DNA of 64,000 nt from a virus (IMGVR_UViG_3300028800_000090:2187-66186), one strand, 5' to 3'; counted from the first letter of the stretch, positions 1,504 to 30,136 are shown. Numbers and translations are program-made. Notes: a model not told the origin generated them from the sequence alone.

Positions 1504-1694
1504 ACCTCGGAGGCGTGTTGTGGCTTCTGTTCCTGGCGGCATGGGTCGCTCTGCTGGTGCGGGAGTACCGCAAGCGCGTAAACGTGGACGACGAGGAAAC
1601 TGCCCCGAGGAACTCAGCGACCTCAACCGGCGGAGCATCAAGCCCTACTCCCACCTCCAACGGCAGGAACGAAAGGCCGTTCGGGACCGACTGA
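1500..1694 (+). CDS. Small membrane protein
   Basis: GTG overlaps the previous stop (GTGA); hydrophobic LGGVLWLLFLAAWVALLV followed by basic residues. Confidence 0.45.
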   Translation: MNLGGVLWLLFLAAWVALLVREYRKRVNVDDEETAPRNSATSTGGASSPTPTSNGRNERPFGTD

Positions 1695-2634: not shown

Positions 2635-4173
2635 ATGAAACTAAAGCGGCTTGCGGCGGTTCTGGTAGCGGCACTCACCTTATGCGGCACAGGACTCGCC
2701 CAATTCGCCACCATCACCGGCACGCTGCAAGGCTCGAACGGCATGCCAGCCCAGAACTACATTTTGAGCTTCCAACTTTCGCAGTTTGGGTACGTCGCCG
2801 GAACCGGCGTGGTCTTGAATGTTGGAACTTATTGTGCGACGTCGACCGATGGGAGCGTGGTGGGCGTCCCAAACCCCCTCCAGGCCCCACCGGTCACAAC
2901 TGGCTTTACCGGCACCCTGCCGCCTGCGAACTACTACGTCAAGTTCGCCTTTTACGATGCAGCCGCGCACGTTACGCTGGTCTCCCCTGAACGAGTGATC
3001 AATCTGGGGTCGACGGGCCAGATTCAGGTTGCAGCACCCTTGAGCGGCATGCCCGCCGGCGCCACCGGGATGAAGGTCTACATCTCGACCGCGCCCAACA
3101 CCGAGACGTTGCAGGGCACGTCAGTCGGCTCGGCAGCCTACATCCAGTCCATTCCCCTGGTCACCGGCGCCGCGGTCCCATCGAGCAACACCACCCTCTG
3201 CAAGCAGGTAGCGAACGACGCGATCTGGCCCACCGGGACCGGCTACACGGTTGCGTTGACTGATACAGGCGGCAACACCCTGCCCGGCTACCCGATGATG
3301 TGGCAACTTATGGGCCCGAACACGACCATAGACCTTTCGACCGGCTTGCCCTACTACCACGGCACGGTCTACTTTCCCACGCCGATCCTAGCCAGCCCCC
3401 TCAACCATGCCTTGCAGACGATCTCCGGACCGCTCGGGCTCTCAGGTTATGACCTGAACAACGTGGGAGCAATCGGCGTGGGGACCTCTCTCCCTGCGTG
3501 GCCGATCGATGTTGAGAACGGCCTGATCAATACCAACCTGGGGTACCTGGTCAACGGCGCTGGGCCGCTCAATCACCTCCTGTGCGGGGATGGCACGGAG
3601 TTTGTAGACTGCGCATCGGTTCCCGCGGGCGCGATTTCCGGCCTGTTCTACCAGACGGTGCAGACCAACACGACGCCTGTGACGCAAAGGCAGGCGCTGA
3701 ACTTCTCCCCGCGGTTCAGTCTTACCGATTCAGCGTCACCCTCGCGCACTACCGCAGACCTTGCCACAACCGCTGTGTCCCCTGGCAGTTACACCCGCAC
3801 CAACCTGACCGTCGACGCCTACGGCCGTATCACCGCAGCCTCGAGCAGTTCCAGCAACTTTACCTCGGTGCAGACTGACGTCACCGGATCTCGAGCCTTT
3901 GGGGGAGGTCCGTACACCAATAGCAGCGGGGCACCGCTCGAGGTGGACGGCTGGCTCACGACGACCGCCGGCGGCGCGGATGGCAACATTACCTGCACCA
4001 ATGGGCCATCGACCGGGACGGAGAATCAGGTCTTCCGAAGCAACCCGACAGCCACCGATGCAGGCGGCAACGCGGCCTTTCACCTCCCGGTGCCCTCGAC
4101 TTGGAAATACCAGTGCACCATCACCGGGACTATGAACGGTGTCATAGGCAAGTGGTTCGAAACAACTCACTAA
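2635..4173 (+). CDS. Signal-peptide-bearing tail-fibre-like protein
   Basis: ATG 2635 after AGGAG; MKLKRLAAVLVAALTLCGTGLA|Q; Fn3-like module; fibre repeat PGSYTRTNLTVDAYGRITAAS. Confidence 0.75.
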   Translation: MKLKRLAAVLVAALTLCGTGLAQFATITGTLQGSNGMPAQNYILSFQLSQFGYVAGTGVVLNVGTYCATSTDGSVVGVPNPLQAPPVTTGFTGTLPPANYYVKFAFYDAAAHVTLVSPERVINLGSTGQIQVAAPLSGMPAGATGMKVYISTAPNTETLQGTSVGSAAYIQSIPLVTGAAVPSSNTTLCKQVANDAIWPTGTGYTVALTDTGGNTLPGYPMMWQLMGPNTTIDLSTGLPYYHGTVYFPTPILASPLNHALQTISGPLGLSGYDLNNVGAIGVGTSLPAWPIDVENGLINTNLGYLVNGAGPLNHLLCGDGTEFVDCASVPAGAISGLFYQTVQTNTTPVTQRQALNFSPRFSLTDSASPSRTTADLATTAVSPGSYTRTNLTVDAYGRITAASSSSSNFTSVQTDVTGSRAFGGGPYTNSSGAPLEVDGWLTTTAGGADGNITCTNGPSTGTENQVFRSNPTATDAGGNAAFHLPVPSTWKYQCTITGTMNGVIGKWFETTH

Positions 4174-4199
4174 TCTCAAACCCTCAAGGAGCTTCCACC

Positions 4200-5816
4200 A
4201 TGCGCAATCGCATTCTTGCGTCCATCCTCGGGCTCGTCGGGCTGCTCACGGCTCCGGCAGCCTTCGCCCAGAACTCGGTTAGCCGCACTCCCTTCAATCA
4301 GACGCAGTACTATGCGACCGATTACGCGCAGTGGGCGATCCGCGGCCAGTCGGCAAACACCTACCTGTTCTCCCCTGGCGGGCTATGCAACGCCTCGGCC
4401 TCGGGTGGGCAGTTCTACGTGTTCAACACGAACGCGCCGGTGGCTATCATCGATGCGACCCCGGCAAACTCTGAGATCGTGACGCCCTCGACGGTGACCA
4501 ATACGGGAAGCCAGTGCGGATTCACGGCATCGCCTGCGAACAATCACTACTCCTTCAACGTGATTTCCGGTACGGCTGGCCTGCAGGAAGCGATCAACTC
4601 GATCTCCGTCCTGCCGACCAACTACCCGGCGCTGGTCATCCTGGACCGCAACTTCTTCACGACCGCCGCGTCTCTGCCTGGTGCCCCAACGGGAGGCTCG
4701 ATCGTCGCTTCGGTCACAGGCACGGCTGGCGTTATCCTCGAAGACGTCACCTCGGCGCCGGCGAAGTACTACGCATGGAATGGAACTGCCTATGTCTCGG
4801 TTGGAGCGACTGGTGCCTTTGCAGCGAACTACAAGGTGACGTCGAACACGGTTCTGACGGTTCCTACGGCAGTCTCGACGGCTGCGGCTACCAATGGGCT
4901 ACTCACAGCCTCAGCTACAGGCGGCACCGTCCCGGCCAGCTCAACCTACCGCATGGCGCTGACCTACGTCGACGCAAGCGGCGGTGAGACGCTGATCTCG
5001 GTCGATACGGCCTCGACTGCGACCATCGCCACCAGTGCAGGATCCACCAACTCGATCTCCGTCACTTCGCCGGCAGCTTTGGCTGGGGCGGTGGGGTATC
5101 GGGTTTACCTCTCGGCAGCCAGCGGTGCGGCCGCATCGGAAATCCTCTACACCCCGACCTGCGTCAAGTCGGCGCTGCAAACTCAGTTGCCTGGAGTCTG
5201 CGCGATCGGTTCATCGGCAACGATCACAGCTATTGTGACGGGGACCGCGACTATCCCGGTGGTTTCAACGGCCTACCCGCGCACAGCCGGGGTTGCGTCG
5301 TTCGAATATCCTCCGTTCACAGCCCTTGGCACGGTGGCGTCGACCGCGACGGGTACTTTGGCGGTCATCAACCTGCCTACCGGCTACCTGAACACGCTGG
5401 GTCGCACGCTGACCTTCTGCGGCAACGGGTACGCGACCAACAACAACACGACTGGAACGATTGCGCTCAATATGGTGGTCGCTTCGGTGCCTGGCGTGAC
5501 CTCAATCACTCCATTCACAGCCTCTTACACCACGGCGACGACTACCGCGGTGCAGGTGCCTCTCGACTTCTGCGTGACCACCACAACGGCGGCAACAGGA
5601 ACTACGGGTACTCTCGAGGTGCATGGCTGGGTTACGACTCGGACAGCGACGGCAGCGGCTGGGCAGGCTGGGCAGACGTCGGTGGACAACATCTTTGCGG
5701 TGTCGTCTACGGTTGACCTGACCAAGCAGGATCAGTTGCAGTTCACGATCGTGCCGACCACGACCGGGCTAACGGCTGCGCAGATCCGGCAGTTGACGGT
5801 CCAAGTCAGCAACTAG
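4200..5816 (+). CDS. Signal-peptide-bearing Thr/Ala-rich beta-protein (structural/adhesin-like)
   Basis: ATG 4200 after AAGGAG; MRNRILASILGLVGLLTAPAAFA|Q; N-domain paralogous to the 6181 protein. Confidence 0.8.
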   Translation: MRNRILASILGLVGLLTAPAAFAQNSVSRTPFNQTQYYATDYAQWAIRGQSANTYLFSPGGLCNASASGGQFYVFNTNAPVAIIDATPANSEIVTPSTVTNTGSQCGFTASPANNHYSFNVISGTAGLQEAINSISVLPTNYPALVILDRNFFTTAASLPGAPTGGSIVASVTGTAGVILEDVTSAPAKYYAWNGTAYVSVGATGAFAANYKVTSNTVLTVPTAVSTAAATNGLLTASATGGTVPASSTYRMALTYVDASGGETLISVDTASTATIATSAGSTNSISVTSPAALAGAVGYRVYLSAASGAAASEILYTPTCVKSALQTQLPGVCAIGSSATITAIVTGTATIPVVSTAYPRTAGVASFEYPPFTALGTVASTATGTLAVINLPTGYLNTLGRTLTFCGNGYATNNNTTGTIALNMVVASVPGVTSITPFTASYTTATTTAVQVPLDFCVTTTTAATGTTGTLEVHGWVTTRTATAAAGQAGQTSVDNIFAVSSTVDLTKQDQLQFTIVPTTTGLTAAQIRQLTVQVSN

Positions 5817-5826
5817 CTCACAACCA

Positions 5827-5856
5827 GCCGCGCCCGGCTTTGCCTCCGGGCGCGGC
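5827..5856 (+). terminator. GC-rich hairpin (mRNA stabiliser or weak terminator)
   Basis: GCCGCGCCCGG-8 nt-CCGGGCGCGGC, 11-bp perfect stem, no U-tract. Confidence 0.5.
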
Positions 5857-5877
5857 AGAATTACCGAGGAAATACCC

Positions 5878-6171
5878 ATGAAAAGCATCGCCCTCTTCTT
5901 TGCCCTCAGCCTCTCCGCCTTTGCGCAGTCAGCCCCCAAGCCAGCCCCGACGCCGCCAGCAGTCGCCGCACCCCAACCCCCGCCCACCCTGACCGAGTTG
6001 CAGCAGGCCAAGCTCGAGAACCTGTCGCTGAAGTTCACCCTACTCCAGCAGCAGCAAGCCCAACTGCAAGGCCAGTATCAGGCGCTGATTCAGTCGATCG
6101 TGGCTGAACACCCCGGATTCCAGTGGGATGCGCAGACCTCGCACCTCGTAGCAGTCCCACCGAAGAAGTAA
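5878..6171 (+). CDS. Small secreted coiled-coil protein
   Basis: MKSIALFFALSLSAFA|Q signal peptide, Pro linker, Gln-rich helix. Confidence 0.75.
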   Translation: MKSIALFFALSLSAFAQSAPKPAPTPPAVAAPQPPPTLTELQQAKLENLSLKFTLLQQQQAQLQGQYQALIQSIVAEHPGFQWDAQTSHLVAVPPKK

Positions 6172-6180
6172 AGGACGCCC

Positions 6181-9100
6181 ATGAAGAAGCTGCTCGCTAT
6201 CGCCGTCGTGCTTACCACGCTCGGCCTCCACGCGCAGACTCCCCCTGTCATCGGGCCGGCCAACATCGCCAACACCCTCTATGCCGCGAACTTCGCTGGC
6301 TGGACCGTGCCGATGGGCAACAACGGTCCATTCTCATGGTCCAGCCCGCAGGTTTGCACCTCGGCCAACTCAGGTGGAGTGACGTTCAAGCCTTTTGTGG
6401 TCGGCTCGCCCATCCGGATCAACGACTCGGCCACCCCATCACACAGCGAGAACGTGACGGTTACCGCGGTCTCGATCATTGGGTCCGGCTGCTCAATTAC
6501 GACGTCGACGCCGGCCTTCCCGCACTACAGTTTCTTCCTGAGCTCGGCCACATCCGGGCTGCAAGAGGCTTTGAACTACTCGCTACAGACCTTTGGCACC
6601 ACCAACCCGGCAAGCCTGGTCATCGTGACCCCAGCATTCCTGGGCACGACAAGCACAATCACCTCTTCCGCAGGCTCGGCCGCAATCGGCATCCTGGATG
6701 AACGTGTTGCTTGCCCAATCGCCTACTCATGGTCGGGGAGTGCTTACGTGGGGACTAGCCTCTGTGGCGCTGGTAACGGCATCACCGCACTCACTGGGGA
6801 TGTAACTGCAATGGGGCCAGGCAGCGCGCTAGCAACGCTGGCTTCCACTACGGTCACTCCCGGCAGCTATACAAACGCAGACATTACGGTGGACGCGAAG
6901 GGGAGAATCACAGCCGCGGCAAACGGCGCCAGCAGCGGGGGCACAATCGTTGCCTCCCTGGAGTTTCAGATTCCCTACTACAGCCTCTCGGGGACGCACC
7001 AGACAGTCACCGGAGACCCGAACTTTACGACGGATGGGAACGGCAACGTCACCGCAAAGAGTGGCGTGTACAACGGAACCGGAACCCCTCTTTCAATTCC
7101 TGCAAACGGTACAGTAACGCCCGCAGCAGGGGTGGCTGGGCTGGGCACGGATGATATGGGAAATTGGGTGCGCTCGAACAATGGGGGCGCTCCTTCAATC
7201 ATGGCGGGACTTGATACGTTCGCCGCTCCTCCTGCGATCGGGAACACGACCGGAGCGCCTGAATTGCGCGTCACGGCGACCAATTATCCCTACACCGGGT
7301 CTAACTTCTGGACGGCGCAGACCACGAGGTGCAGCCAAACACTTCTGCCTGATGATCCCGGTGCTGTCGGCGAAGGAAGCATCTGCATCACCATCTCACA
7401 AGACAACAGTTACAACCCCGGATGGATGTATGGATCGCCGGGAACAGGCAGTGACGTTGCAGGTTTTGGGCATGGCACCCTTTCGGTGTTCCCAGTCAAT
7501 AGCTACAGCAATGGCATCGATCAGGGGTTCGGGTTCTACGGAAATTACTTCAAGGCCGGGGATGTGCAGCTTGAGAGCCTTATTGGATATTTCAAACCTG
7601 CGGCTATCGCTGGATCAGATGAAGGCGTCGTTCTGAATCGTTCCGTGATGTCGGAAGTCGATCCTTACACCGGAACAGTTGTCTCGACCACCGATGGAAC
7701 GGGATACAAGAATGTCGTCCTGACATGCACAGCGAACTGCGCCGATATTGGACTGAACTCCCCGCTTATCGACACAACCAGCCCAGTCAGCGATACGGCT
7801 ACCTACGTATCAACGGGCACTTACGGCAACAACATCACCCTGACGACGACCTCAGTAACTTCCTCGATCACTGGAACGCTGGCAGCGGATATTGACGTTC
7901 CACGCACAGTTGGAAATTCTACCGGACGCCTTTCTGCGGGGACGGTGACGATCAACTTCAATGTGACGGGTGGCAGCCCAATCACTACCTCCACAACCTG
8001 TTCGATCATGGGGCCAGCGTTCTTTGAGACAGTGATTCCTTCGGCGGTGGGGAGCCTGGGTGGAGGAGTTCAGTCTGTCACGGCAACCTACCACTACTCA
8101 CACTCAAGCGGCGCGACGTTCTATTGCGGAGGATCGGCAGGGCAATACATCGAAGAAACCGAATACAGTGTGGGCGCGAAGCGGTACGTTGAGAACATCT
8201 ACGGTTCAGTATCCCCACACACTCTTCTCGTCGGGCATCAGATTCCGAACGCAGCGCAGTCGGTCTTTCCAACCACCGGAAGCCATGCGGTGAATATATA
8301 TCCCGGCGGGGAAGTGGTTGGAGTGCTGAATCCTTCGAACTCGACTCCTGACGGAGCCTATCTTGCAGTTGAAATGACGGGTGCCGCATGGACTCCGACC
8401 GACACGGTAGAGAACGTCAACAACATCGCGGCGGGATACGTTTGGGAGTTTTTCGGCGCGGGCGGCTTTCCAATCGACAATCCATTTGCATCTCGCATCG
8501 GACACTTGGACGAATGGACCGGCTATGGCGGAGGCCAGGCCGAAGGTAACGGAGTCTGGGAATTTATCAATTGGAACACGACATCTGGATATTCGGGGGC
8601 TGGGGGAAATGAGAGCGCCCCCTACTTGATTCGCGTCCGTGGCGCTGTTGCCAATGGAATAGCATTTGATTTTCCTCCCCTTATATCTGGCAACAAAGGA
8701 ACAGGCAATGGCGATGGCTATTTACTCTCCATTGCAAATGGTCCTGTCGCAGGAGCGAGCAGTATAGAGGGGATTTTTAGCCAAGGGGATGCGGCGGGAC
8801 AGTTCACCTATGACCACGCAACGAGTAAGTTCAACTTCGCTGCATCTGATTTGACATTGAACGGCAACTCAGTCCTAACCACAGCATCTCCAGTGCTGAC
8901 AGGAACGGGAACCACAGATTGTCTCTCAAAATGGTCCGGTGCCAGTGCGCTAACTGATTCGCACATTTGTGAGTCTGGGGGGAATCTCAACGCCTCGGAG
9001 CAGGTTTCAATTTCCACTTCCACCCCAATCGCTCTTTCGCTGGCAACTTCAGCGACAAACTACTCCGGCATTGCGATTAACAATACCTCTGGAGGCGGCG

Positions 9101-9693
9101 ACTACTGGTGGCTGATTACCCGCGGCTCGAGTGTGTCTGTACCTGGGATTCTGGAATTTTTCGACGTATCGAAGGGATACAGTCTTGCTCAGGACGGGAA
9201 TGGTACTGCTTACGTTCCGTCGATAGGATTCTTGGGGTTCTCAGGCGCTACAAACCCGGCTGATGCTCCTTGCGACACCGGATTTTCGCGTGACTCTGGT
9301 GGTGTGATCGACGTAGGGAATTGTACGGCAGGCAACAAGAGTGGCACGCTGAACGCAGCCAATGTCACCGCCAGCGCAACCGTACAGGGCTTGCAGGTCA
9401 TCGCCACCTCCAACTTCACCGCGACCGCCGCACCTCTGAGCGTGGCGTGCAGCACTTCGGGAAATATTCTGTGGTCTGCGCCTGAACGCGGGGCTTCAGA
9501 TCAGAAAGTGATCATCTACTTCAACGCCTGCCTCGGAACGGCGACGATCACATTTCCGGGGACGTATGCACAGACACCTGGCATCTACCCATCCTCGGCG
9601 ACCACGGCAGGACTGGTAACGACTCTCAGCACCTCCTCAGCAACAGTGACGGGCGCGACCACAACCGGATTCTTATTCTTGGAAGGGTTCTAG
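6181..9693 (+). CDS. Large signal-peptide-bearing tail-fibre/adhesin-like protein
   Basis: MKKLLAIAVVLTTLGLHA|Q; ITALTGDVTA and PGSYTNADITVDAKGRITAAANG fibre motifs; G/S/T-rich, 1170 aa. Confidence 0.8.
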   Translation: MKKLLAIAVVLTTLGLHAQTPPVIGPANIANTLYAANFAGWTVPMGNNGPFSWSSPQVCTSANSGGVTFKPFVVGSPIRINDSATPSHSENVTVTAVSIIGSGCSITTSTPAFPHYSFFLSSATSGLQEALNYSLQTFGTTNPASLVIVTPAFLGTTSTITSSAGSAAIGILDERVACPIAYSWSGSAYVGTSLCGAGNGITALTGDVTAMGPGSALATLASTTVTPGSYTNADITVDAKGRITAAANGASSGGTIVASLEFQIPYYSLSGTHQTVTGDPNFTTDGNGNVTAKSGVYNGTGTPLSIPANGTVTPAAGVAGLGTDDMGNWVRSNNGGAPSIMAGLDTFAAPPAIGNTTGAPELRVTATNYPYTGSNFWTAQTTRCSQTLLPDDPGAVGEGSICITISQDNSYNPGWMYGSPGTGSDVAGFGHGTLSVFPVNSYSNGIDQGFGFYGNYFKAGDVQLESLIGYFKPAAIAGSDEGVVLNRSVMSEVDPYTGTVVSTTDGTGYKNVVLTCTANCADIGLNSPLIDTTSPVSDTATYVSTGTYGNNITLTTTSVTSSITGTLAADIDVPRTVGNSTGRLSAGTVTINFNVTGGSPITTSTTCSIMGPAFFETVIPSAVGSLGGGVQSVTATYHYSHSSGATFYCGGSAGQYIEETEYSVGAKRYVENIYGSVSPHTLLVGHQIPNAAQSVFPTTGSHAVNIYPGGEVVGVLNPSNSTPDGAYLAVEMTGAAWTPTDTVENVNNIAAGYVWEFFGAGGFPIDNPFASRIGHLDEWTGYGGGQAEGNGVWEFINWNTTSGYSGAGGNESAPYLIRVRGAVANGIAFDFPPLISGNKGTGNGDGYLLSIANGPVAGASSIEGIFSQGDAAGQFTYDHATSKFNFAASDLTLNGNSVLTTASPVLTGTGTTDCLSKWSGASALTDSHICESGGNLNASEQVSISTSTPIALSLATSATNYSGIAINNTSGGGDYWWLITRGSSVSVPGILEFFDVSKGYSLAQDGNGTAYVPSIGFLGFSGATNPADAPCDTGFSRDSGGVIDVGNCTAGNKSGTLNAANVTASATVQGLQVIATSNFTATAAPLSVACSTSGNILWSAPERGASDQKVIIYFNACLGTATITFPGTYAQTPGIYPSSATTAGLVTTLSTSSATVTGATTTGFLFLEGF

Positions 9694-12600
9694 TGAGACT
9701 CATCGCCCGCATCCTCGGAACTGCGTTGCTCCTGCTGTACGCGGTGGGCGGGTTTGCGCAGACTGCTGTCGTCCTGCAGCAAGCCCCATCCAGCGGGGAT
9801 GGTGTGTTTGTTGCGACCTTGCCAAGCCACACGGCGGGCGGGATGTCATGCGTTAAGTATTGGGACAACGGCGGCACCCCTCCTCCTGATCCCACAAACA
9901 CCGCGGGCTTTGTATGGACTTCACCGTTGGGATATGCCAATGGGAAGGAGATTTGGTGCGCACCCAAAACCGCCTATGGGTCTGCGGACACGGTGACGGT
10001 TGCATCCAGCGCATACCACGGCCAAATCATCTTCGCCGATTACTCTCTCGTCACAGCCTCGGACGGGAGTGCAACCGACACAGGCAATGGCACGACCCCG
10101 TTGGTCAGCTTTGCGATCAGCGGCAGCAACGACATCGTTATCGCTCTGTGCAGCACAGGCAACGGCGACGGGGTTCCGGGGGCTGGGTACACCGCCTTCA
10201 CAGGGTTTGGGACGGGCTACTTTATAGCAGAGTACGGCACGACCTCAACCGGGCCTGCGGTCGCCACCTGCACCCAGGGCTACGCTAGTTGGAGTATTTA
10301 TGCTCTTGCACTGTCAGCTCCAGGAGGCACACCGACTGCTGCGACTCCAACTTTCTCTCCGGCGGCGGGGACGTATAGTTCTACGCAGTCGGTGGCGATC
10401 TCGACTTCAACCAGTGGGGCGACGATCTGCTACACCTCGGACGGCTCAACACCCACAGCAGATGGGGCAGGCACCTGCACGCATGGAACGACCTACACGA
10501 CGGCTGTATCTGTGGCAACCACCCTGACCCTCAAGGCGATAGCGTCAAAGAGCGGCTATACCGATTCAGGCGTTGCCTCCGCCCTCTACACGATCACTGC
10601 GCCGTCGATTGTAATGACCCCGAACGTGCCTACCTATAACTTCCAAGTCCTGCCGGGTTCGACGCGCCAGATCAGCACGCAGATAGGCAACGGATCGGCT
10701 ACCCCCTGCGGACCGGGCACAACCCCATCCTGCGTGGGAACTGTGGACTGGTCGGTTGTATCGGGAAGCGCGACCTTTACCGACCCAACCCACACCGCAG
10801 TCTCCTCGATCACAGGCGGACTGGCGACGATCCTGGTCAACATCGGCGCCACGACAGGAAGCTGCTCCATCACCGGAAGCGCGATCGGCACTTACGGGGT
10901 TACGTCCACGACGACGGCCACGGTGCGAGCGACTTCCACCGATGATCCCACGCAACACGCTGACTTCCTTTTCAACGTTTGCGCCCAGACCACAACGGTA
11001 ATCGTCGCGCCAGCCTACCAGCAGGCATTCCAAGGGCAGAAGATGACCTTGCAGTCGTGGGTTACTGGAGATACGGACGAAACCGGAACCTGGAGCATCC
11101 TCACCCAGCCCGGAGGCGGGGATGGGGCTTTGGCTGACACCGGCAACCGGGACGCACAATTCTCCGCCACCGTGACGGGACGCTACGTCATCAAGTACAC
11201 GTCGCACTCGGACGCCAGCAAGAATGCAACCGGAATCGTCTATGTCTCGCCCAACCCTCTCCCCAGCTACGCAGTCACCCCACAGGGCACCCAGCCCCGC
11301 GAATGTTACGTCGATCCCGCGCTGACTGGGGGAGATTACGAAGTCGGCCCCGGCCAAGCCTACACGACCATCCAATCGACTCCTGCGGCGAACACTCTGG
11401 CGGCTGGCTCAATCATTCGCATTCATCCCGGCACCTATGCGGAGTATTACCAGATCCACAACTCTGGCACGGCAACTCAGCCAATGATCGTCTGCGGCGT
11501 GGCTGATACGGACGGGACTCTTCCGGTTGTCACAGGAAACAACGCCACCGGGCAGGCGGGAACATCGATCTATGCTGCGGCGGGGTGGGGCGTTCTCTCC
11601 CTCTGGGCAGGTGGTTATGGCAGTGGCACTCCCTATGGGTACTGGCAGGCGGGTTCAGCGGGACCATCCTACGTCTCTATCACTGGCCTGCACGTCATGG
11701 ATGCGACCCCAGCCTTTACTTACACGCAGCCCGGTGGAGTGGCGGCAGGATGCCAAGGCTCTGGGCCGTCCTTGACCACCTGCAACTACATCGTTGGGGC
11801 TTCGGCCATCAACCTGCGTGGCGGGTCGTATATCGACATCGCCGGGGTTGAGATGGACACCGCTACCAACGGCATCTTTACCGCGACGAACACGAACAAC
11901 GGATGGGCTAACGTCACGCAGGAGGTGACAGTAAGTGGCAGCCATATTACGAACTCTGGCTGGGCGACCGACTACACCGAGCACCAAGCTTATCTTCAGA
12001 GCTTCTACATGCTGTTCGAGGGCAATCTGGTAGACAACTACCTCAGCACGGCGGCGGGAAGTGAAATCAAATGGCGCGGACTCGAAGGCATCTTCCGCTA
12101 CAACAATCTTGGCACAGGCCCGCAGCGAGACTTTGATCTCGTTGAAAATCAGGACGGCGGGACGTACATGAATTTCGAGTGGTATCTCAGTAACCCCGGC
12201 CAGACCAACTGCGCTCAATCGCTCTATTGTCTGGGCGACACAGCCGGAGCGAACATCGTTGCTGGCTACCAGGAGTCACAACAGAAAGACTTCGTTTATG
12301 GCAACGCCATCTTCGGAGCCTCCGCCGTCTATCAGATTCATTATGCCGAGGATCACGATTCAGGCATGAGCGACCGCAACGGGACGCTCTACTTCTACTC
12401 GAACACGCTGGACAATGCGCAAGTGGTGTTTGATCAGGGCAGCGGGGGAGGCTACAACCCGATCCTCACCCAGCGATTTGATGCGCGGAATAACATCCTT
12501 TGGCCTTCAGGCACGGTTCCCGGCGTGGCTTTCAACAGGAATGAGATGATCATCCTGAATCCGACCACGAACCTGATGCGGACGAGCAGCTTCTCAATCA

Positions 12601-13256
12601 CTACACCCATCACCGGAGGCAGCTATTCAGGCCACACGGCGAACGGCTGGAACGCGGGATGCGACTACACCTGCTTCTGGCCGCTGACGAACCCGATCAA
12701 TCCGCACCTGTACGGCCTGACGAATGCGAACTATCTCTCGACGGCAACCCAGCCGTACGATGGCACGACGCTGATCCCTCCGGGCGGAAGCGCAGCAATC
12801 GGGGCAGGGACGCCCTTGAGTGGCGTTCTGGCTACAATGCCGGTCCGGTGGCAGTGGAACGTAGCGACGGGCAGCCTGACGCCACGGCTGTACCCTCTGA
12901 CGATTGGGGCGGAGGATCAGGCGGGCAGCACCCCCACGGCAGCCACGCCAACCTTTAGCCCGGTCGCCGGCACCTACACGGGCACACAGAGCGTCACGAC
13001 CTCGACTTCGACCAGCGCGTGCAGTGCGTACCTCTACACCGGAACGACCAACCCGCCGACCGTCAACACGAACACGATCAGCGTTGCGGCCTCCGAGACG
13101 GTCTATTCGTACGTGCACAGCTGCCCAGGGTATCTCGATTCAGCCATAGCTTCGGCTGCCTACACGATTACGGCTCCCAGCAGTCCGCAGCTCACCATAG
13201 GCGGGCATGGGGTGACGATCAATCGCGGGTGCGTCATGACGGTGACGTGCCCATGA
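9693..13256 (+). CDS. Secreted multidomain protein: two Fn3-like (chitobiase C-terminal-type) modules flanking Ig-like and parallel beta-helix (polysaccharide lyase/depolymerase-like) regions
   Basis: GTG start, signal ...YAVGGFA|Q; TAATPTFSPxAGTY twice (~10330, ~12930); DYEVGPGQAYTTIQ...IIRIHPGTYAE, a typical beta-helix N-cap; Asn-rich. Confidence 0.75.
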   Translation: MRLIARILGTALLLLYAVGGFAQTAVVLQQAPSSGDGVFVATLPSHTAGGMSCVKYWDNGGTPPPDPTNTAGFVWTSPLGYANGKEIWCAPKTAYGSADTVTVASSAYHGQIIFADYSLVTASDGSATDTGNGTTPLVSFAISGSNDIVIALCSTGNGDGVPGAGYTAFTGFGTGYFIAEYGTTSTGPAVATCTQGYASWSIYALALSAPGGTPTAATPTFSPAAGTYSSTQSVAISTSTSGATICYTSDGSTPTADGAGTCTHGTTYTTAVSVATTLTLKAIASKSGYTDSGVASALYTITAPSIVMTPNVPTYNFQVLPGSTRQISTQIGNGSATPCGPGTTPSCVGTVDWSVVSGSATFTDPTHTAVSSITGGLATILVNIGATTGSCSITGSAIGTYGVTSTTTATVRATSTDDPTQHADFLFNVCAQTTTVIVAPAYQQAFQGQKMTLQSWVTGDTDETGTWSILTQPGGGDGALADTGNRDAQFSATVTGRYVIKYTSHSDASKNATGIVYVSPNPLPSYAVTPQGTQPRECYVDPALTGGDYEVGPGQAYTTIQSTPAANTLAAGSIIRIHPGTYAEYYQIHNSGTATQPMIVCGVADTDGTLPVVTGNNATGQAGTSIYAAAGWGVLSLWAGGYGSGTPYGYWQAGSAGPSYVSITGLHVMDATPAFTYTQPGGVAAGCQGSGPSLTTCNYIVGASAINLRGGSYIDIAGVEMDTATNGIFTATNTNNGWANVTQEVTVSGSHITNSGWATDYTEHQAYLQSFYMLFEGNLVDNYLSTAAGSEIKWRGLEGIFRYNNLGTGPQRDFDLVENQDGGTYMNFEWYLSNPGQTNCAQSLYCLGDTAGANIVAGYQESQQKDFVYGNAIFGASAVYQIHYAEDHDSGMSDRNGTLYFYSNTLDNAQVVFDQGSGGGYNPILTQRFDARNNILWPSGTVPGVAFNRNEMIILNPTTNLMRTSSFSITTPITGGSYSGHTANGWNAGCDYTCFWPLTNPINPHLYGLTNANYLSTATQPYDGTTLIPPGGSAAIGAGTPLSGVLATMPVRWQWNVATGSLTPRLYPLTIGAEDQAGSTPTAATPTFSPVAGTYTGTQSVTTSTSTSACSAYLYTGTTNPPTVNTNTISVAASETVYSYVHSCPGYLDSAIASAAYTITAPSSPQLTIGGHGVTINRGCVMTVTCP

Positions 13257-13726
13257 ACTTTACAAAAGAACAAACCGAAGCGATGTGCGTCAAGTACGGG
13301 CCCCAGGTCGGACCGCTGCCGGCTGGCGTCGACGGCACTCAACTCTTGTGGGGGATGGTAGGAACCGAATCATCCTTCGGAACCGACTGTACTCCGCGGC
13401 ATGAGCCAGCCTTTGATGTTGGGGGACGGTACGGCAGCAGCCCGGTTATGGTGGCACTTCTGGCGAAGTATGGTCCTGCGGCCGCTTGCTCGTACGGACC
13501 TCTTCAGATCATGCTCTGCAACGCGACGGGAGCATCTCCGCAGGACTTTGATACTCTCGACCAGGCATTTCAATTGACACTACCTTTCCTCAACTCGCGG
13601 CTACGTAGATTCAAGCCGCAGAGTCTTGCGGAGATCGGGGAAATCTGGAACGCAGGCTCTATCCGGCCAGATCCCACTTACGTAGCAAAATTGCAGAGCA
13701 ACTACGTTGTACCAATGGGAGAATAA
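13253..13726 (+). CDS. Endolysin, lysozyme/SLT-like transglycosylase
   Basis: ATG 13253 (ATGA overlap); catalytic 'ESSFG', 'SYGPLQIM', 'WNAG', 'YVAK' motifs. Confidence 0.8.
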   Translation: MNFTKEQTEAMCVKYGPQVGPLPAGVDGTQLLWGMVGTESSFGTDCTPRHEPAFDVGGRYGSSPVMVALLAKYGPAAACSYGPLQIMLCNATGASPQDFDTLDQAFQLTLPFLNSRLRRFKPQSLAEIGEIWNAGSIRPDPTYVAKLQSNYVVPMGE

Positions 13727-13731
13727 GCGAA

Positions 13732-14058
13732 ATGGCGGATTGCGCGGGCTATGATGCACGCTGGCACGAAGACTTGGGGGCACAAGTGGAAAAACACCAC
13801 GAGGCTATCCACGGCAACGGCGACTTAGGACTAAAGACCAGGGTTAGCACAATCGAAACCTACATCGCCGACCGCAAGCACGACCGTATGTGGCTGATGG
13901 GCATTCTGGCGGGGATTCTCGTTCTCCTGGGGCATCAACTCATCAACGACTTCATGGGGCGCTTCCAACTTGTTGCGCCGCAGGTCACGCAGACCTCGAC
14001 CAGCACTGTAACCGATACGACCAGCACGACCAAGACGCAGAAGCCAACAGGGAGGTAG
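13732..14058 (+). CDS. Single-TM membrane protein (holin/lysis-associated)
   Basis: IHGNG-GLKTRV-IE coiled segment, then TM MWLMGILAGILVLLG; follows the endolysin. Confidence 0.6.
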   Translation: MADCAGYDARWHEDLGAQVEKHHEAIHGNGDLGLKTRVSTIETYIADRKHDRMWLMGILAGILVLLGHQLINDFMGRFQLVAPQVTQTSTSTVTDTTSTTKTQKPTGR

Positions 14059-14061
14059 AAG

Positions 14062-14262
14062 ATGAACGACTTGCGTACAGAACTGATCCGTAATCTTGTA
14101 GGCTTCTTCCTCGTTGGCGTCGGCATCACCGTTATCGTCCTCGGTGCGCATTGGCATATGGACGTGCTTATCACCCTCGGAACCGCAACGTTGATCCCCG
14201 CCGCGCTACTCTCATTACAGAGCAAGCACACACCACCATCGGACCCAAACGACCCAAAGTAG
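14062..14262 (+). CDS. Putative holin (2 TM)
   Basis: Two hydrophobic helices, 66 aa, SD GGAGG, lysis context. Confidence 0.6.
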   Translation: MNDLRTELIRNLVGFFLVGVGITVIVLGAHWHMDVLITLGTATLIPAALLSLQSKHTPPSDPNDPK

Positions 14263-14291
14263 CAAGCCCGAAAGGGCAGGAGAGCAACACC

Positions 14292-14693
14292 ATGAACTTC
14301 CTCAAGGCTATCGCCAAGCCGTTCGTCAGCATCTTCCACTTCCTCGCTTCCCCCAAGGGGCAGGCTTTGATCTCCACCGGAGAGGCCATCGTGACCGTCA
14401 TTGATCCTGCACTCGCCCCAATGATCTCCCTCGCAAACTCATGGATGGATAAGGTCTTGACCACTGAGCAGTTGGCTGTGACCGCCGGCCAAGCCACCGG
14501 AACCGGGACACAGAAGGCCGCTCTCGTCATGCAGGCAATGGCGCCGGAGATTGCAAAATACTTCCCGGCCGCAACCGCCGCAGAGATTATGAACGCGAAC
14601 AATGCGATCGTGGCCTTCCTGCAGGCGTTCAGCACGCCCGCGACTCCTGCTGCAACACCAACCCCCGCTCCAGCTCCCGCACCAGCAGGCTAG
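14292..14693 (+). CDS. Amphipathic lysis-region protein (holin-associated)
   Basis: ATG 14292 after AGGAG; 'GTGTQKAALV' resembles the 'G-EK' motif of LL-H-like holins. Confidence 0.5.
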   Translation: MNFLKAIAKPFVSIFHFLASPKGQALISTGEAIVTVIDPALAPMISLANSWMDKVLTTEQLAVTAGQATGTGTQKAALVMQAMAPEIAKYFPAATAAEIMNANNAIVAFLQAFSTPATPAATPTPAPAPAPAG

Positions 14694-14697
14694 ACCG

Positions 14698-15168
14698 ATG
14701 CAGAGCCTAGTCATCCGCTTCATAGATGAGCCAGATTGGGTTAGTCGTGCAATTACCTGGACGACTAACTCTCTCTGGTGTCACACGGAAGCACTCAACC
14801 GTGCCGGCACTGGCTGGACCGGAGCTCATGCAGGACCTGGGGTGGAGACTCGCGCGCTGAACTGGTGCAAGCCATTACGGGAGCGTCGCTACGCCATCCC
14901 TGTATCGGCTAAAGATTACTCGGCGGCGCACGACTTCTTAGAATCACAGTTGGGCATCTATTACGACTACCGCGACATCTTCGGACTACTGATCCACAAG
15001 CGTGTCTGGAGTCCGCAGCGGGTCATATGCTCGCAACTTATGACCGAGTTCATGCAGCACGCGGGACTCCAGCCGCTCAATGTCCTGCCGCAATTCTCGG
15101 CGCTGATTACACCGGAGACCTTGCACCTCTCGCCTATCTTCATCGGGCGGGGCATCTTCCATATTTGA
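14698..15168 (+). CDS. Permuted papain-like (NlpC/P60, YaeF/YiiX-like) enzyme
   Basis: SRAI-W-T-S-WCHTE (His), YDY, ICSQL (Cys) in permuted order, ITPETL. Confidence 0.8.
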   Translation: MQSLVIRFIDEPDWVSRAITWTTNSLWCHTEALNRAGTGWTGAHAGPGVETRALNWCKPLRERRYAIPVSAKDYSAAHDFLESQLGIYYDYRDIFGLLIHKRVWSPQRVICSQLMTEFMQHAGLQPLNVLPQFSALITPETLHLSPIFIGRGIFHI

Positions 15169-15182
15169 TTCGAGGTACAACA

Positions 15183-15737
15183 ATGACCATCCGAAAGATG
15201 ATGTGGTTATGCCTTCTTGCCTGCACGGTTACAGCCTCGGCGCAGTACACGCCAACTGCGTACCTGATGTTCGACGCATCGGGAAACCCATTTCCTGCAG
15301 GCAGTGGGGCGCCGCTAGGCTATATCCCTCCCAGTTTTACCTGCTACACGAACGTGACCGGCAGCGTATTGCCGTGCAACTTCTCAGGAGTGGGCACAAC
15401 TCCTGTTCAAATATCCTCCACTTTTGTAGGCGTGCCTGCTAATTCTCAGGTTCTTCTCTACATCCCCGCAACAGCAACACTAACCATTGCGGCCTCATGT
15501 GCGGGGTCGTACTTTCATGCGCTGGTGGCTGCCACAGGCTCAACTGCGTTTCTAGTAAAAGACCTGACTACCTCTGCCACGCTATGCACTGCGACGTTTG
15601 CCGGAAGCGGAACGGTCGCTACGTGGTCTGGGCCAGGGGGTACAGTTTCTCCGGGTGACGATATTGAGATTGTTGGCCCCGCTTCGGCAGACGCCACGCT
15701 CGCGACTTTGGGAGTAAGTATCTATGCGACTCGCTAA
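15183..15737 (+). CDS. Small signal-peptide-bearing beta-protein
   Basis: MTIRKMMWLCLLACTVTASA|Q; paired cysteines. Confidence 0.7.
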   Translation: MTIRKMMWLCLLACTVTASAQYTPTAYLMFDASGNPFPAGSGAPLGYIPPSFTCYTNVTGSVLPCNFSGVGTTPVQISSTFVGVPANSQVLLYIPATATLTIAASCAGSYFHALVAATGSTAFLVKDLTTSATLCTATFAGSGTVATWSGPGGTVSPGDDIEIVGPASADATLATLGVSIYATR

Positions 15738-18015
15738 ACTCCTGCTCGTGATGCTGTGCCCTACGATGGCGTGGGCGGCGGCATGTCCGACTGGATACAG
15801 CAACCGCGCTGAGTTCGTGGTTCCGTATCAAAGTCTCGCTTCAACGTTGACGAGTTTCCCTGTGTTGCTCGCGTTCAATGGCATCACGACCAGTTTGGAT
15901 GGACTACCGACGACGACATGGTTCAACGTGCCGGGATTGAAAACAAATGTGCTGTCAAGCGGAAACGACATCGTATTCTGTGATGCGGCAACATCAGGAA
16001 ACCTGCTCAACTTCGAGCGGGTGTTCTGGACGAGCACCACCGGGGCGAGCGAGTTCTATGTGAGCCGCACCCTCAGCAACTCTGCGAATACCGCAATCTG
16101 GATGTTCTGGGGCAAGACTTCGGACTCCGACCATTCCTCAGCAGCGGCGGTTTGGAGTGCGGCGAATTACGCCTACGTCAACCATTTCGGCACCAATGGG
16201 TCTCTCTCTGTGGCAGACTCGGCAGGAAACTATACTCCGATAAACCACAGCGGCGTAACTGTCGCGGGCGTCGTTGGGGGTGGAATCAGTTTAGCCACTT
16301 CGCAGTATGTTGATTCCGGAGCGTCAGTCGGGACGCTGGCTGGGAACATCACCGTTGAGTTCTGGTTGAACCCAGAGAATACCTCACAGGCTGCATCCGT
16401 TGTGGATGATCTGGATGGAAGCTTAGTGGGCTATAACACAAACTTTACCAATACTTCTGGCGGTTCTCTCAACCTTTCATATCAGGTCGGAGTGCCGGGA
16501 AACATAAATAACACTAACGCTACAATCCCCTTTGGCCCCCCATGGACCCATGTTTCTGGAACAACTCAAGGCACATCAAATGTTTTGTACTTGAACGGCG
16601 TGTCGGCTGCCACGTTCACACATGCTCTTGCTGCTGGTTCGTCAAATCTAAGTGTGGGGCGTTATACAGGCGGAAATAACTCTTTCTGCACCGCTTGCTA
16701 TGTGGACGAGGTACGCGTATCAAGAACAACAGCCCAGTCCGCTGATTGGGAAAATGCCGTCCACACTACAATTGCCACGCCGAACGGTTTTGCCATCATG
16801 CTCGATGCCTCCACGCCTGCCGGAATGACTTCAGGCGCATACTGCGTTCCCGTTACAGTCGCTCATGCCCAAATCCCAAACACTGATCAGAGCAACTTTC
16901 CCCTCCTGGTGTTTGGCACGTATGGCTGGATGGCGGACACTACCCATAACGGCTTCGCAGTCAACGGAAACGCAGGCCACGATATTCGCTTTTATTCGAA
17001 CAGTGGATGCACCTCATCGCTCGCGTTCCAGCGCGTCTACTGGACGAACACGACAGGCGAGTCGTCGTGGCGAGTTCGTGTTCCGACGCTTTCGCATACA
17101 AGCGACACGACGGTGTACGTGAAAATTGGAAGCTCCGCTGACACTTCCGACCTCTCAACTCTCTGGATGGGGACATATAACTACATCGGCGTATTCAATG
17201 GCGGTTCTCCGGTGAGCCTGAGTTCGTCGGACTCTGGAAGTGGGAATTTAGGTCTAGGCTGCGATGCGCAAGTCCAGTCTATCTATAGCCCAGTCGGGGG
17301 CGGGTTCTACTTCCCAGCCGGGGGCTACTCCTGCGGCTATGCACCTTCGACCACTGGCGAAAACATTGGGCAGTACGGTTATCCGGTAGGCAGCGCAGTC
17401 GGCCATATTCGCATATGGGCCAAAACTATAGCGGCAACGAACAGCGGTGCAGGTGTCAACTTCGTAGGCTATGGCAAGGCTAATAATAACGGTCAGCGCG
17501 GTTTTCAGACCGAGTACAGCGACTCTGCGCAATACACCGGAATGCAGACGCTTACCTTCCCATCGAACCCAGCAGTGACGTTCACACAGTCCACAACCAA
17601 CGTGTCCACTCCATCCTTCTACCTCGACAATAACTGGCACCTGTATGACTTCGACTACCCGACAGCGGCGGGACAACTCAGCACATCGAGCCTCTACATT
17701 GACGGCGTTCTGGCAAGTCCTCCCTACTACTACGCTGGGGCTAACACGACGGTTCTCAACACAGATAACGGAGCCTGCACCGCGACTGGAAGCTGCGGAA
17801 CCGATGTAGCTGAGGTCAGAATCGGCAGGACCGCAGCACACGGTATTGATTACTTTGTTGGCTTGGCCGCGCAGTTTGAGGTCACCAATGTTTCTGAGAG
17901 TTCCGATATGGTCAATGCCCGCTACAACAATGAACGTTTCCCCAACACCTTCTACTCGTTCGGGACTGCATCGCCTTTGTCGTCCGCGCAGCCCATCGTA
18001 ACTGTGATTTTTTGA
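15724..18015 (+). CDS. Secreted DUF2341 + LamG/ConA-like lectin protein (tandem duplication)
   Basis: Signal ...PTMAWA|A; two LTSFPVL...DIVF/DIRF...LxFERVFW repeats; WTHVSGT...LYLNG...VDEVRVS and NNWH...LYIDG LamG motifs. Confidence 0.8.
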   Translation: MRLAKLLLVMLCPTMAWAAACPTGYSNRAEFVVPYQSLASTLTSFPVLLAFNGITTSLDGLPTTTWFNVPGLKTNVLSSGNDIVFCDAATSGNLLNFERVFWTSTTGASEFYVSRTLSNSANTAIWMFWGKTSDSDHSSAAAVWSAANYAYVNHFGTNGSLSVADSAGNYTPINHSGVTVAGVVGGGISLATSQYVDSGASVGTLAGNITVEFWLNPENTSQAASVVDDLDGSLVGYNTNFTNTSGGSLNLSYQVGVPGNINNTNATIPFGPPWTHVSGTTQGTSNVLYLNGVSAATFTHALAAGSSNLSVGRYTGGNNSFCTACYVDEVRVSRTTAQSADWENAVHTTIATPNGFAIMLDASTPAGMTSGAYCVPVTVAHAQIPNTDQSNFPLLVFGTYGWMADTTHNGFAVNGNAGHDIRFYSNSGCTSSLAFQRVYWTNTTGESSWRVRVPTLSHTSDTTVYVKIGSSADTSDLSTLWMGTYNYIGVFNGGSPVSLSSSDSGSGNLGLGCDAQVQSIYSPVGGGFYFPAGGYSCGYAPSTTGENIGQYGYPVGSAVGHIRIWAKTIAATNSGAGVNFVGYGKANNNGQRGFQTEYSDSAQYTGMQTLTFPSNPAVTFTQSTTNVSTPSFYLDNNWHLYDFDYPTAAGQLSTSSLYIDGVLASPPYYYAGANTTVLNTDNGACTATGSCGTDVAEVRIGRTAAHGIDYFVGLAAQFEVTNVSESSDMVNARYNNERFPNTFYSFGTASPLSSAQPIVTVIF

Positions 18016-30021: not shown

Positions 30022-30136
30022 GACGTAGCGCGAGTTTCTGTCGCTTCCTCGCGCTGGTGGTGCACCGAAGGAGAGCGACGTCAGGTGCCCAGCACGGCCC
30101 CCAGAGATGGGGGCCTTACCTTTTGAGGGTGAACGA

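Follow-up and report, generated by a model that had tools for sequence, protein, structure and literature searches.

The 64,000-nucleotide stretch of viral DNA analysed here (the window) corresponds to bases 2187-66186 of the 66,186-bp single-contig virus record IMGVR_UViG_3300028800_000090, and carries between positions 2635 and 18015 a module of 12 genes, seven of which encode proteins that begin with predicted Sec signal peptides. These proteins are designated by the start positions of their genes (2635, 4200, 5878, 6181, 9693, 15183 and 15724, all on the + strand; Table 1). Sec export, leader cleavage and oxidative folding are very probably the fate of all seven. The favoured reading, to which a probability of roughly 0.55 is given, is that the seven are Sec exports which fold in the periplasm, and that 2635, 4200 and 6181 are modular receptor-binding fibres that meet the phage particle late. 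It is built on features observed in silico, namely the leaders, their conservation, cysteine parity, fibre- and lectin-like parts, modularity and the host; export with cleavage, disulfides and late docking onto the particle are what these features would imply. The original prediction, in which the receptor-binding apparatus of the phage is exported and joins the virion at lysis or else the phage remodels the host surface, is strongly backed in silico as regards export, whereas receptor-binding identity is backed for 2635, 4200 and 6181 and more weakly for 9693, 15183 and 15724.

Signal peptides of the seven proteins

Leaders were called with an n-, h- and c-region heuristic applied to every ATG, GTG and TTG of open reading frames (ORFs) of at least 60 amino acids (aa) in six frames of the whole 66,186-bp genome. 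Genome-wide, 52 start positions were flagged, among which the seven named starts are the strong ones within real coding frames; most of the remainder score weakly or sit in frames that are antisense or overlap others. A Shine-Dalgarno-like motif is found 5' of each of the seven starts except that of 9693, whose GTG overlaps the stop of the upstream gene 6181. All seven leaders fall among the 12 genes of 2635-18015 and none among the 27 other + strand genes (hypergeometric P of 5.1e-5, with the 39 listed + strand genes as background). The sole other candidate outside the block is a 119-aa ORF that runs from 57520 downward on the - strand, in the early region, and has a weak signal-peptide-like N-terminus (MKPLSLPWAALVLSG...).

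The seven had been predicted to carry signal peptides that are cleaved mostly before Gln, and each proves to have a canonical leader of the Sec/signal peptidase I type. The n-region has a net charge of +1 to +3 in all seven, and the h-region comprises 10-16 residues with a mean Kyte-Doolittle value of 1.99-2.49 (the Sec criterion is about 7-15 uninterrupted residues). Position -1 is Ala in every leader and position -3 is Ala (four leaders), Gly (two) or Leu (one). Gln occupies position +1 in six of the seven, the exception being 15724, which reads AWA before the junction and AAC after it. A Tat signal was considered and rejected, as a twin arginine (RR motif) occurs in none of the seven leaders.

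The +1 Gln of 2635, 4200, 5878, 6181, 9693 and 15183 is reminiscent of the Q-rule of Bacteroidetes, in which the +1 Gln of signal-peptidase-I substrates is cyclised to pyroglutamate (PMC5837995), but here it is seen in a phage of Acidobacteriaceae, that is, outside Bacteroidota. Acidobacteria go unmentioned in the available portion of that paper. In a sample of host sequence (230 kb) Gln was the second commonest residue at +1, in 6 of 36 heuristic-positive ORFs, many of them for membrane proteins, a sample too small for a Q-rule to be called in the host.

The leaders might also remain in place, as uncleaved signals or lipoprotein anchors, so that the proteins would be membrane-tethered until a signal-anchor-release (SAR)-like release on holin collapse, or displayed on cells or vesicles. 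A Cys does lie within the h-region of 2635 (LTLCGTG), AAAC stands near the junction of 15724, and SAR endolysins show that phages make use of releasable N-terminal anchors (available portion of PMC6116005). Such anchoring is nonetheless improbable, given that Ala at -1 is universal, -3 is a small residue or Leu, and a conserved mature start comes next. None of the seven junctions fits the lipobox [LVI][ASTVI][GAS]C, the AAAC of 15724 being a poor lipobox two residues beyond the AxA site. The Cys in the 2635 leader is missing in many homologues, and full-length relatives of 15724 have an even number of Cys counted from the AxA site in 15 of 15 cases, by a reading of the listing. A SAR domain is a weakly hydrophobic, Gly/Ala/Ser-rich, long N-terminal transmembrane (TM) segment that lacks a cleavage site; the h-regions here are unlike it, with 0-6 Gly, Ala and Ser and 4-8 Leu, Ile, Val and Phe in their 10-16 residues.

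Conservation of the leaders and cysteine parity

A survey of related phages had been suggested as a check on the leaders, and it found them kept as a feature. For the 2635 family, 187 relatives were found at E <= 1e-3 among 8000 candidates scored, and 120 of these were listed. In this family the sequence of the leader is free to vary, in contrast to the mature start, which is conserved (consensus QYVTLTGTLQSSNG.PA). A mature start could be recognised in 84 of the listed relatives; it is preceded by a hydrophobic leader in 76 of them, and the junction shows a small residue and Gln in 70. The other 36 listed relatives have another start or are truncated and were left unscored, and some of them (P0086 and P0090) visibly have leaders that end in AYG followed by GTV. 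The family of the N-terminal domain shared by 4200 and 6181 (the N-domain; alignment A2) has 914 cluster representatives at E <= 1e-3. Among the best 150 of the 914, a hydrophobic leader is present in 143, the N-domain begins no further than about 40 residues from the N-terminus, and protein lengths range from 196 to 1869 aa. The 15724 family has a hydrophobic leader in 16 of 16 near-full-length relatives.

The same feature can be followed at the level of loci. In 45 IMG/VR loci with a 2635-family gene, 87 of 129 same-strand downstream ORFs of at least 200 aa are leader-positive, compared with 5 of 99 elsewhere. The 2635-family gene itself is leader-positive in 27 of the 45 loci at the same strict threshold, and several others fall below that threshold or are cut by a contig end. 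Taken as sequence data, these results indicate that the feature is real and general well beyond the window, and that export is well supported.

Cysteines in pairs had been noted as consistent with disulfides, and the counts agree with this. The mature proteins have, in gene order, 6, 6, 0, 16, 22, 4 and 10 Cys, an even number in all seven. Counted over the related loci, the Cys number is even for 82 of the 92 distinct leader-bearing ORFs that have any Cys, versus 61 of 125 other ORFs (binomial P of 3e-15, Fisher P of 2e-10); the contrast is large, but these P-values are too small and overstate the significance because the ORFs are related and not independent, which is a point to be set against the favoured reading. 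Two Cys are invariant in each alignment, C67 and C189 in the 2635 family and C63 and C106 in the N-domain family. Proteins in which disulfides form in an oxidising compartment are known for such a bias towards even Cys numbers.

Cysteine parity bears on whether the leaders are used at all. Sec might be saturated or shut off during infection, so that tails are assembled in the cytoplasm and the N-terminus serves some other end, for example membrane contact during infection. This would keep the textbook assembly route, and export is here a prediction. The idea is highly improbable all the same, since both the even-Cys bias and the invariant Cys pairs point to an oxidising compartment, and since the leader sequences drift while the n/h/c architecture and the AxA-Q junction persist, which is the pattern of a working leader. 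The rank of Gln at +1 in the small host sample speaks in the same direction.

Fibre-like proteins 2635, 4200 and 6181

The identity of 2635, 4200 and 6181 as receptor-binding proteins is supported by the fibre motif, by the folds of the heads and by the combination of a conserved N-terminus with a swapped C-terminus. A phage fibre repeat had been reported at 3769-3843 and 6847-6927; the coordinates are right, and PHROG tail-fibre families match both copies (Table 1). The 57-aa motif segments also match phrog_7389, with E values of 0.019 (3769-3843) and 4.2e-4 (6847-6927). Neither segment has a match in Pfam, and the whole proteins 2635, 4200 and 6181 have no Pfam or PHROG match at E <= 0.01. 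At the sequence level, membership in a named tailspike family was found for none of them in Pfam, PHROG or the cultured-phage collection.

The leader of 2635 comprises residues 1-22 (nt 2635-2700) and the mature protein starts with QFATITGT. In a structure model built with 56 sequences (mean predicted local distance difference test score, pLDDT, of 79.6), the N-terminal beta-sandwich domains (residues 23-240) are confident and residues 242-340 are poorly modelled, the fibre motif coming next. The C-terminal jelly roll (residues 407-512) resembles BclA (Z 8.7, root-mean-square deviation 3.0, 97 aligned) and XepA (Z 8.4), at Z values that are middling. In the fold search of the model this head also resembles C1q, TNF-family heads and Bdellovibrio fibre tips; heads of the C1q/TNF type are usually trimers. 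The head is swapped among members of the 2635 family, one of which (P0008) has the Pfam tail-fibre domain Gp53-like_C (2.7e-8).

The model of 4200 (mean pLDDT 70.2) has a confident N-domain (about residues 33-205), which includes the two invariant Cys. Its C-terminal domain (residues 364-538) resembles legume lectins and galectins, with Z values of 8.2-8.8 over about 150 aligned residues and 105 chains at Z of at least 8. Searched against BFVD, the model picks out the KP34 capsule depolymerase (E 5.7e-7 over 173 columns), the phi15 tail spike (E 2.4e-5), a pectate-lyase protein and tail-fibre entries, along with many uncharacterised phage proteins; the matching domain of 4200 is not assignable in these cases because the output comes without ranges. 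The lists from PDB fold searches with 4200 were filled by the C-terminal lectin-like domain, and the N-domain was barely probed by them. Foldseek searches of PDB with the full-length models of 2635 and 4200 gave only weak multi-domain matches, with a query template-modelling (TM) score of at most 0.19.

In 6181, the 4200-type N-domain is followed by a long, variable C-terminal part. The modularity of this arrangement was examined in 29 distinct N-domain members of at least 450 aa, in which the first 230 residues can be aligned in 402 of 406 pairs, whereas an alignment past residue 260 is seen in only 47 of these 402. The N-domain was found in 3 of 81 sampled host-family genomes, one of them being the genome with the syntenic prophage described below, and by this distribution it is phage-specific. 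The shared N-domain behaves like a docking module, a role for which it is a plausible candidate. On the contig of the syntenic prophage (L001), a 1512-aa N-domain protein encoded at 11293-15831 has a long basic extension before its leader; it was not called by the heuristic, and its true start is uncertain.

Other leader-bearing proteins

A CHB_HEX_C domain lies at residues 223-295 of 9693, for which Pfam gives only CHB_HEX_C_1/Fn3_assoc. Many proteins encoded on Acidobacteria contigs, which reach 4 Mb in length, are 50-66% identical to the core of the protein (about residues 300-1100). These bacterial relatives begin with a leader and the core, and some are named chitobiase/beta-hexosaminidase C-terminal domain-containing protein; in the phage protein, leader and core are separated by about 280 additional residues. 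Judged from its sequence, 9693 is probably a glycan-degrading enzyme.

LamG/DUF2341 or beta-helix domains had been proposed for other proteins of the module. The LamG and DUF2341 domains are present in 15724 (Laminin_G_3 at 4.2e-12 and 46.9 bits, with a cut-off of 27.6; DUF2341 at 1.8e-7 and 32 bits, with a cut-off of 23.4), but a beta-helix in 9693 was not found directly, and a single distant homologue has PF13229. The 15724 family was found solely on contigs of 62 kb or less. The PHROG matches of 15183 are to its C-terminal part. As for 5878, it may be a periplasmic helper, although this is a guess.

Table 1. Features of the module and of the adjoining structural genes (window coordinates)
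Position	Strand	Feature	Evidence
2635..4173	+	Leader-bearing fibre-like protein, 512 aa, conserved first gene of the module	Heuristic, model, PHROG motif
3769..3843	+	Fibre motif SPGSYTRTNLTVDAYGRITAA (read as TAVSPGSYTRTNLTVDAYGRITAAS)	phrog_38058 tail fiber protein, E 1.1e-6
4200..5816	+	Leader-bearing protein, 538 aa, N-domain and lectin-like C-terminus	Alignment, model, fold search
5878..6171	+	Leader-bearing protein, 97 aa, Pro-rich linker, Gln-rich predicted coiled coil, zero Cys	
6181..9693	+	Leader-bearing protein, 1170 aa, 4200-type N-domain, fibre motif, 16 Cys	Alignment, PHROG motif
6847..6927	+	Fibre motif TPGSYTNADITVDAKGRITAA (read as TTVTPGSYTNADITVDAKGRITAAANG)	phrog_29288, 3.9e-7; phrog_38058, 5.9e-6
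9693..13256	+	Leader-bearing protein, 1187 aa, GTG start overlapping 6181 stop, 22 Cys	Pfam, homologues
13253..13726	+	Signal-less protein, 157 aa, putative lytic-transglycosylase-type endolysin	Motif reading, synteny
13732..14058	+	108-aa protein, one TM segment (about 53-72), holin- or spanin-like	
14062..14262	+	66-aa protein, two hydrophobic segments, holin-like	
14292..14693	+	133-aa protein in lysis block	
14698..15168	+	156-aa protein	phrog_1128
15183..15737	+	Leader-bearing protein, 184 aa, 4 Cys	phrog_11585, 8.7e-9; phrog_7049 tail fiber, 0.0033 (weak)
15724..18015	+	Leader-bearing LamG and DUF2341 protein, 763 aa, 10 mature Cys	Pfam
18719..21250	+	P22-type portal protein	Feature score 0.98; structure TM score 0.61-0.75 to portal clusters
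30107..33211	+	Signal-less structural protein, 1034 aa, 16 Cys	46% identity in syntenic prophage

Lysis and structural genes

Five signal-less genes lie between 9693 and 15183. That they form a lysis block within the module is well supported by position, on the strength of the syntenic prophage, in which the slot of 13253 is occupied by a gene with PG_binding_3 and GH108 matches (4.7e-8 and 0.0012). The lysis cassette that had been placed inside the cluster is thus backed by the two-TM 66-aa protein, the one-TM 108-aa protein and the prophage synteny. The product of 13253-13726 is a putative endolysin by a reading of its ES, GPLQI and WNAG (SLT-like) motifs, and searches with hidden Markov models and of PDB sequences gave it no name. 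The L001 protein in the slot of 14698, compared by position only, has a weak Peptidase_C92 match. PDB sequence searches with the 13253 and 14698 proteins returned nothing usable.

The portal gene is the next large gene past the leader-bearing module and opens a conserved block of cytoplasmic structural genes. The statement that no signal-less long fibre gene is evident in the window was too strong, as 30107-33211, with a small carbohydrate-binding-like segment at residues 177-240, and 33208-34293 both encode signal-less structural proteins. The segment of 30107 has matches to a head-decoration PHROG and to a Bacillus phage PK1 beta-helix protein. An Atlas search with 30107 gave no named family, and PDB sequence searches with the 18719, 24475 and 30107 proteins gave nothing usable. 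It is possible from its sequence that 30107 is a tail hub or nozzle, perhaps with a sugar-binding module. Its 46% conservation suggests the behaviour of a tail hub, while the variable leader-bearing genes behave like host-range determinants.

Several other genes were noted along the window. A 181-aa basic, Cys-containing protein is encoded at 1520-2065 (+); in 11-13 related loci it is kept as the immediate upstream neighbour of the 2635-family gene, and it could be a late regulator of the module. An HNH endonuclease is encoded at the left end of the window (73-600, +) and a GIY-YIG homing endonuclease immediately 3' of the portal gene (21260-21979, +). The 335-aa product of 27284-28291 (+) has a terminal CxxC...CxC zinc-ribbon-like motif, which is unusual for a structural block, and a homologue in the syntenic prophage. 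A 3830-aa DarB-like protein is encoded at 37099-48591 (+; phrog_10089, E 0), with SNF2/ResIII/Helicase_C domains, a 2'-5' RNA-ligase-like domain at residues 622-727 and a weak Acb1 match under the Pfam cut-off. This protein has zero Cys and no counterpart in the syntenic Acidobacteriaceae prophage. An N4-like virion RNA polymerase was considered for it and rejected, the protein being DarB-like.

The phage and its host

The large terminase (TerL) of the phage, encoded at 49132-50727, has only 26-29% identity to terminases of marine podophages, and a TerL scan of IMG/VR gave no match. Proteins 2635, 6181 and the portal have no tblastn match in the cultured-phage collection (50,697 phage records). 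The distant TerL, the P22-type portal and the three unmatched proteins indicate that the phage is probably deep-branching and short-tailed. A membrane-containing virion was rejected because TerL, the P22-type portal and the podovirus-like gene set speak against it. Genes on the - strand encode DnaB, RusA, a YqaJ-type exonuclease and Erf.

Protein 2635 has a single match among 185,579 species genomes, on a contig (L001) of an Acidobacteriaceae metagenome-assembled genome (MAG) that also holds a TerL homologue with 41% identity. A prophage on this contig is syntenic with the window, with a 2635-family gene, two N-domain genes, lysis genes and the portal in order, and after the portal homologues of 22629, 24475, 26520, 27284, 28362, 30107, 33208, 34294, 34991 and TerL. 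Bacterial genes (SMC, sigma factor) lie upstream of the prophage. Since the syntenic prophage sits in an Acidobacteriaceae MAG, synteny shows the host to belong to the Acidobacteriaceae (soil Acidobacteria). Between the prophage and the window the signal-less structural genes are kept one-to-one, whereas the leader-bearing genes vary in number and in their C-termini.

Comparison with known systems

Tail fibres and tailspikes of tailed phages normally lack a signal peptide and are assembled in the cytoplasm, whereas all of the candidates here carry leaders. The closest working analogues are the tailspikes and fibres of podoviruses (P22 gp9, the KP34 capsule depolymerase and the phi15 tail spike), which possess an N-terminal particle-binding part and an exchangeable C-terminal part that binds the receptor or acts as a depolymerase. 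The likeness extends to late genes beside lysis genes, a P22-type portal, a conserved N-terminus with swapped C-termini, heads that bind or cut glycans, the BFVD matches to KP34 and phi15, and the PHROG fibre motif. The difference lies in the predicted cleavable leader and the even Cys number of every candidate here. Searches of the full-text literature, with bioRxiv and PDF supplements outside their scope, turned up no account of tailed phages whose tail fibres or spikes bear leaders, and the available portion of PMC5723332 has none.

Leaders on comparable genes are found in two groups of cultured podoviruses. The Cellulophaga phages phi18:3 (gp085-gp087; KC821620) and phi46:3 (gp079-gp083; KC821622) are Pachyviridae that infect Bacteroidota. 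Both have consecutive large leader-bearing genes, with Gln at +1, directly upstream of lysis genes; phi46:3 has five such genes, and one of the proteins is of the pectate-lyase type in relatives. In GenBank, gp085-087 of phi18:3 are annotated as 'structural protein' with experimental tandem mass spectrometry (MS/MS) proteomics, which is the best outside support for a virion role. These phages differ from the one described here in the phylum of the host and in having few Cys (0-4). No sequence similarity to the window was detected, three of its proteins being without a tblastn match in the phage collection.

Tunturiibacter phage Tunturi 1 (PP887698) shares with the present phage the host family (Acidobacteriaceae) and the morphotype class. 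Five of its proteins have leaders: gp12, gp13, gp14 (annotated 'tail spike'), gp16 and gp17 ('virion structural'). Their genes lie in a block of about 13 kb flanked by a tail gene and the lysis genes, and the whole proteins have 20, 10, 21, 2 and 32 Cys, respectively. Over the first 50 kb compared, the two phages are unrelated save for an HNH gene and a CHB_HEX_C-like segment. That Tunturi 1 is unrelated and yet leader-bearing suggests a host-linked strategy as opposed to a quirk of one family. The portion of the Tunturi paper available (PMC11924767) does not mention signal peptides or report virion proteomics.

Other phage proteins that pass through Sec resemble the seven in part. Coat proteins of filamentous phages (Ff pIII and pVIII) are virion proteins with leaders that are assembled outside the cytoplasm; Ff phages, however, belong to another virus realm, and their virions leave by extrusion through the envelope, with no lysis and no cytoplasmic capsid. 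Leader-bearing morons are known in tail regions, such as lom of lambda, cor of phi80 and N15 and llp of T5, whose products are small outer-membrane proteins or lipoproteins. Five of the seven proteins are unlike these, as they are 512-1187 aa in length and have fibre motifs or lectin- or C1q-like heads; 5878 and 15183, with 97 and 184 aa respectively, are the only moron-sized ones. Sec-exported and SAR endolysins (Lys44 of Oenococcus phage fOg44 and the P1 Lyz type) are likewise late proteins that use host Sec and act outside the cytoplasm, but they are lysis enzymes and not virion or receptor-binding proteins, and the putative endolysin here is leader-less. Endolysins are the sole tailed-phage late proteins described as Sec users in the available portion of an endolysin review (PMC6116005). 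Prophages of P. gingivalis carry five Q-rule leader genes of unknown function, which have been interpreted as outer-membrane modifiers (available portion of PMC10367356).

Fibres on the particle or free exported proteins

Under the favoured reading, the seven proteins would be substrates of the Sec system and signal peptidase I of the Acidobacteriaceae host and would be exported late to the periplasm. A leader of 16-23 residues would be removed there, mostly exposing Gln, and the proteins would fold with disulfide bonds. Proteins 2635, 4200 and 6181 would be modular fibres whose N-terminal part is conserved and phage-specific and whose glycan-binding heads can be exchanged, 9693 a glycan-degrading enzyme akin to secreted enzymes of the host but with a phage-specific N-terminal extension, and 15724 and 15183 further glycan-binding accessories. 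The head, portal and tail core are leader-less and would be built in the cytoplasm, and for this reason the exported proteins would join the particle only once the neighbouring holin and endolysin breach the inner membrane, or after lysis. Large inner-membrane holin lesions belong to the lambda model, and lesions of this kind could let cytoplasmic particles and periplasmic fibres mix inside a closed outer membrane before final lysis. Some of the exported proteins, 9693 above all, may act also or only as free enzymes. A virion role for the exported proteins is plausible.

It is also conceivable, though rather unlikely, that the seven are exported but never become part of the virion. They would then be secreted or periplasmic effectors, free depolymerases or lectins that strip or mask exopolysaccharide or receptor or that remodel the surface of a lysogen, and adhesion would be left to a signal-less tail protein, for example 30107-33211. 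Benefits could include easier release, progeny that do not stick to debris and superinfection exclusion. The closeness of the 9693 core to Acidobacteria proteins that begin with leader and core would fit this, the LamG/DUF2341 and lectin folds would suit soluble glycan binders, and 30107-33211, of 1034 aa, is conserved, lacks a signal peptide and carries a carbohydrate-binding-like segment. Leader-bearing genes have also been given such a role in P. gingivalis prophages (PMC10367356), and WceF is a bacterial exported enzyme with a tailspike fold (available portion of PMC7949094). The leader-bearing morons of tail regions, such as lom, cor and llp, would fit it too. Against it, 15 kb of a 66-kb genome, or about 13 kb in the lytic phage Tunturi 1, is a big cost for non-structural genes, and the leader-bearing genes are the lineage's only hypervariable, modular genes with fibre motifs. 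The shared N-domain is phage-specific, as judged from the host-family genomes, and its position at or close to the N-terminus is that of a docking module; 30107 has a conserved homologue, unlike a host-range determinant; and the counterparts in phi18:3 are annotated as structural from MS/MS.

Several further points weigh against the favoured reading. The leaders were called by an in-house heuristic and not by SignalP, and the choice of cleavage site is crude; in the related loci Gln is the commonest +1 residue, but its count falls from 68 of 87 to 33 of 97 when a bonus for Gln is taken out of the scoring. The match of the 9693 core to proteins on Mb-scale Acidobacteria contigs is as compatible with a borrowed secreted enzyme as with a tailspike, and the shared N-domain is absent from 9693, 15183 and 15724. 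The likeness of the N-domain to the N-termini of tailspikes is weak, the sole PDB row being 7w1c with Z 7.2 over 75 residues. The MS/MS note for phi18:3 comes from another phylum and is a GenBank annotation only, in which co-purifying non-virion proteins are possible. Virion presence is argued by analogy, with none of the analogues from the phage's own lineage. Docking after the breach would face dilution and a short time window, and the docking partner is hypothetical. Finally, the signal-less and conserved 30107-33211 could be the true adhesin.

Implications

In the textbook account, assembly of tailed phages is wholly cytoplasmic. A broader proposal is that tailed phages of Acidobacteria, and by the look of the Cellulophaga phages also those of Bacteroidota, use a two-compartment assembly in which the head and tail core are cytoplasmic and the whole recognition set is Sec-exported, disulfide-bonded, probably pyroglutamate-capped and docked after holin action. 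This is tentative, its chances being put a little short of even. If true, it would represent a second, so far undescribed assembly route for Caudoviricetes, the last step of which would take place during or after the membrane breach. The timing of lysis would be tied to completion of the virion, and the fibres would gain stability of extracellular grade. Host range would depend on the Sec, signal-peptidase and Dsb systems of the host. The usual cytoplasmic expression could not give functional fibres of this kind, and annotation pipelines that count a signal peptide against a virion role would mislabel such proteins. If the proteins are free exported enzymes instead, a quarter of the genome would be given over to remodelling the glycan coat of the host, which would be unusual for a lytic-type podovirus. 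The question is directly testable in cultured phage-host pairs with the same feature, Tunturi 1 with Tunturiibacter and phi18:3 with Cellulophaga.

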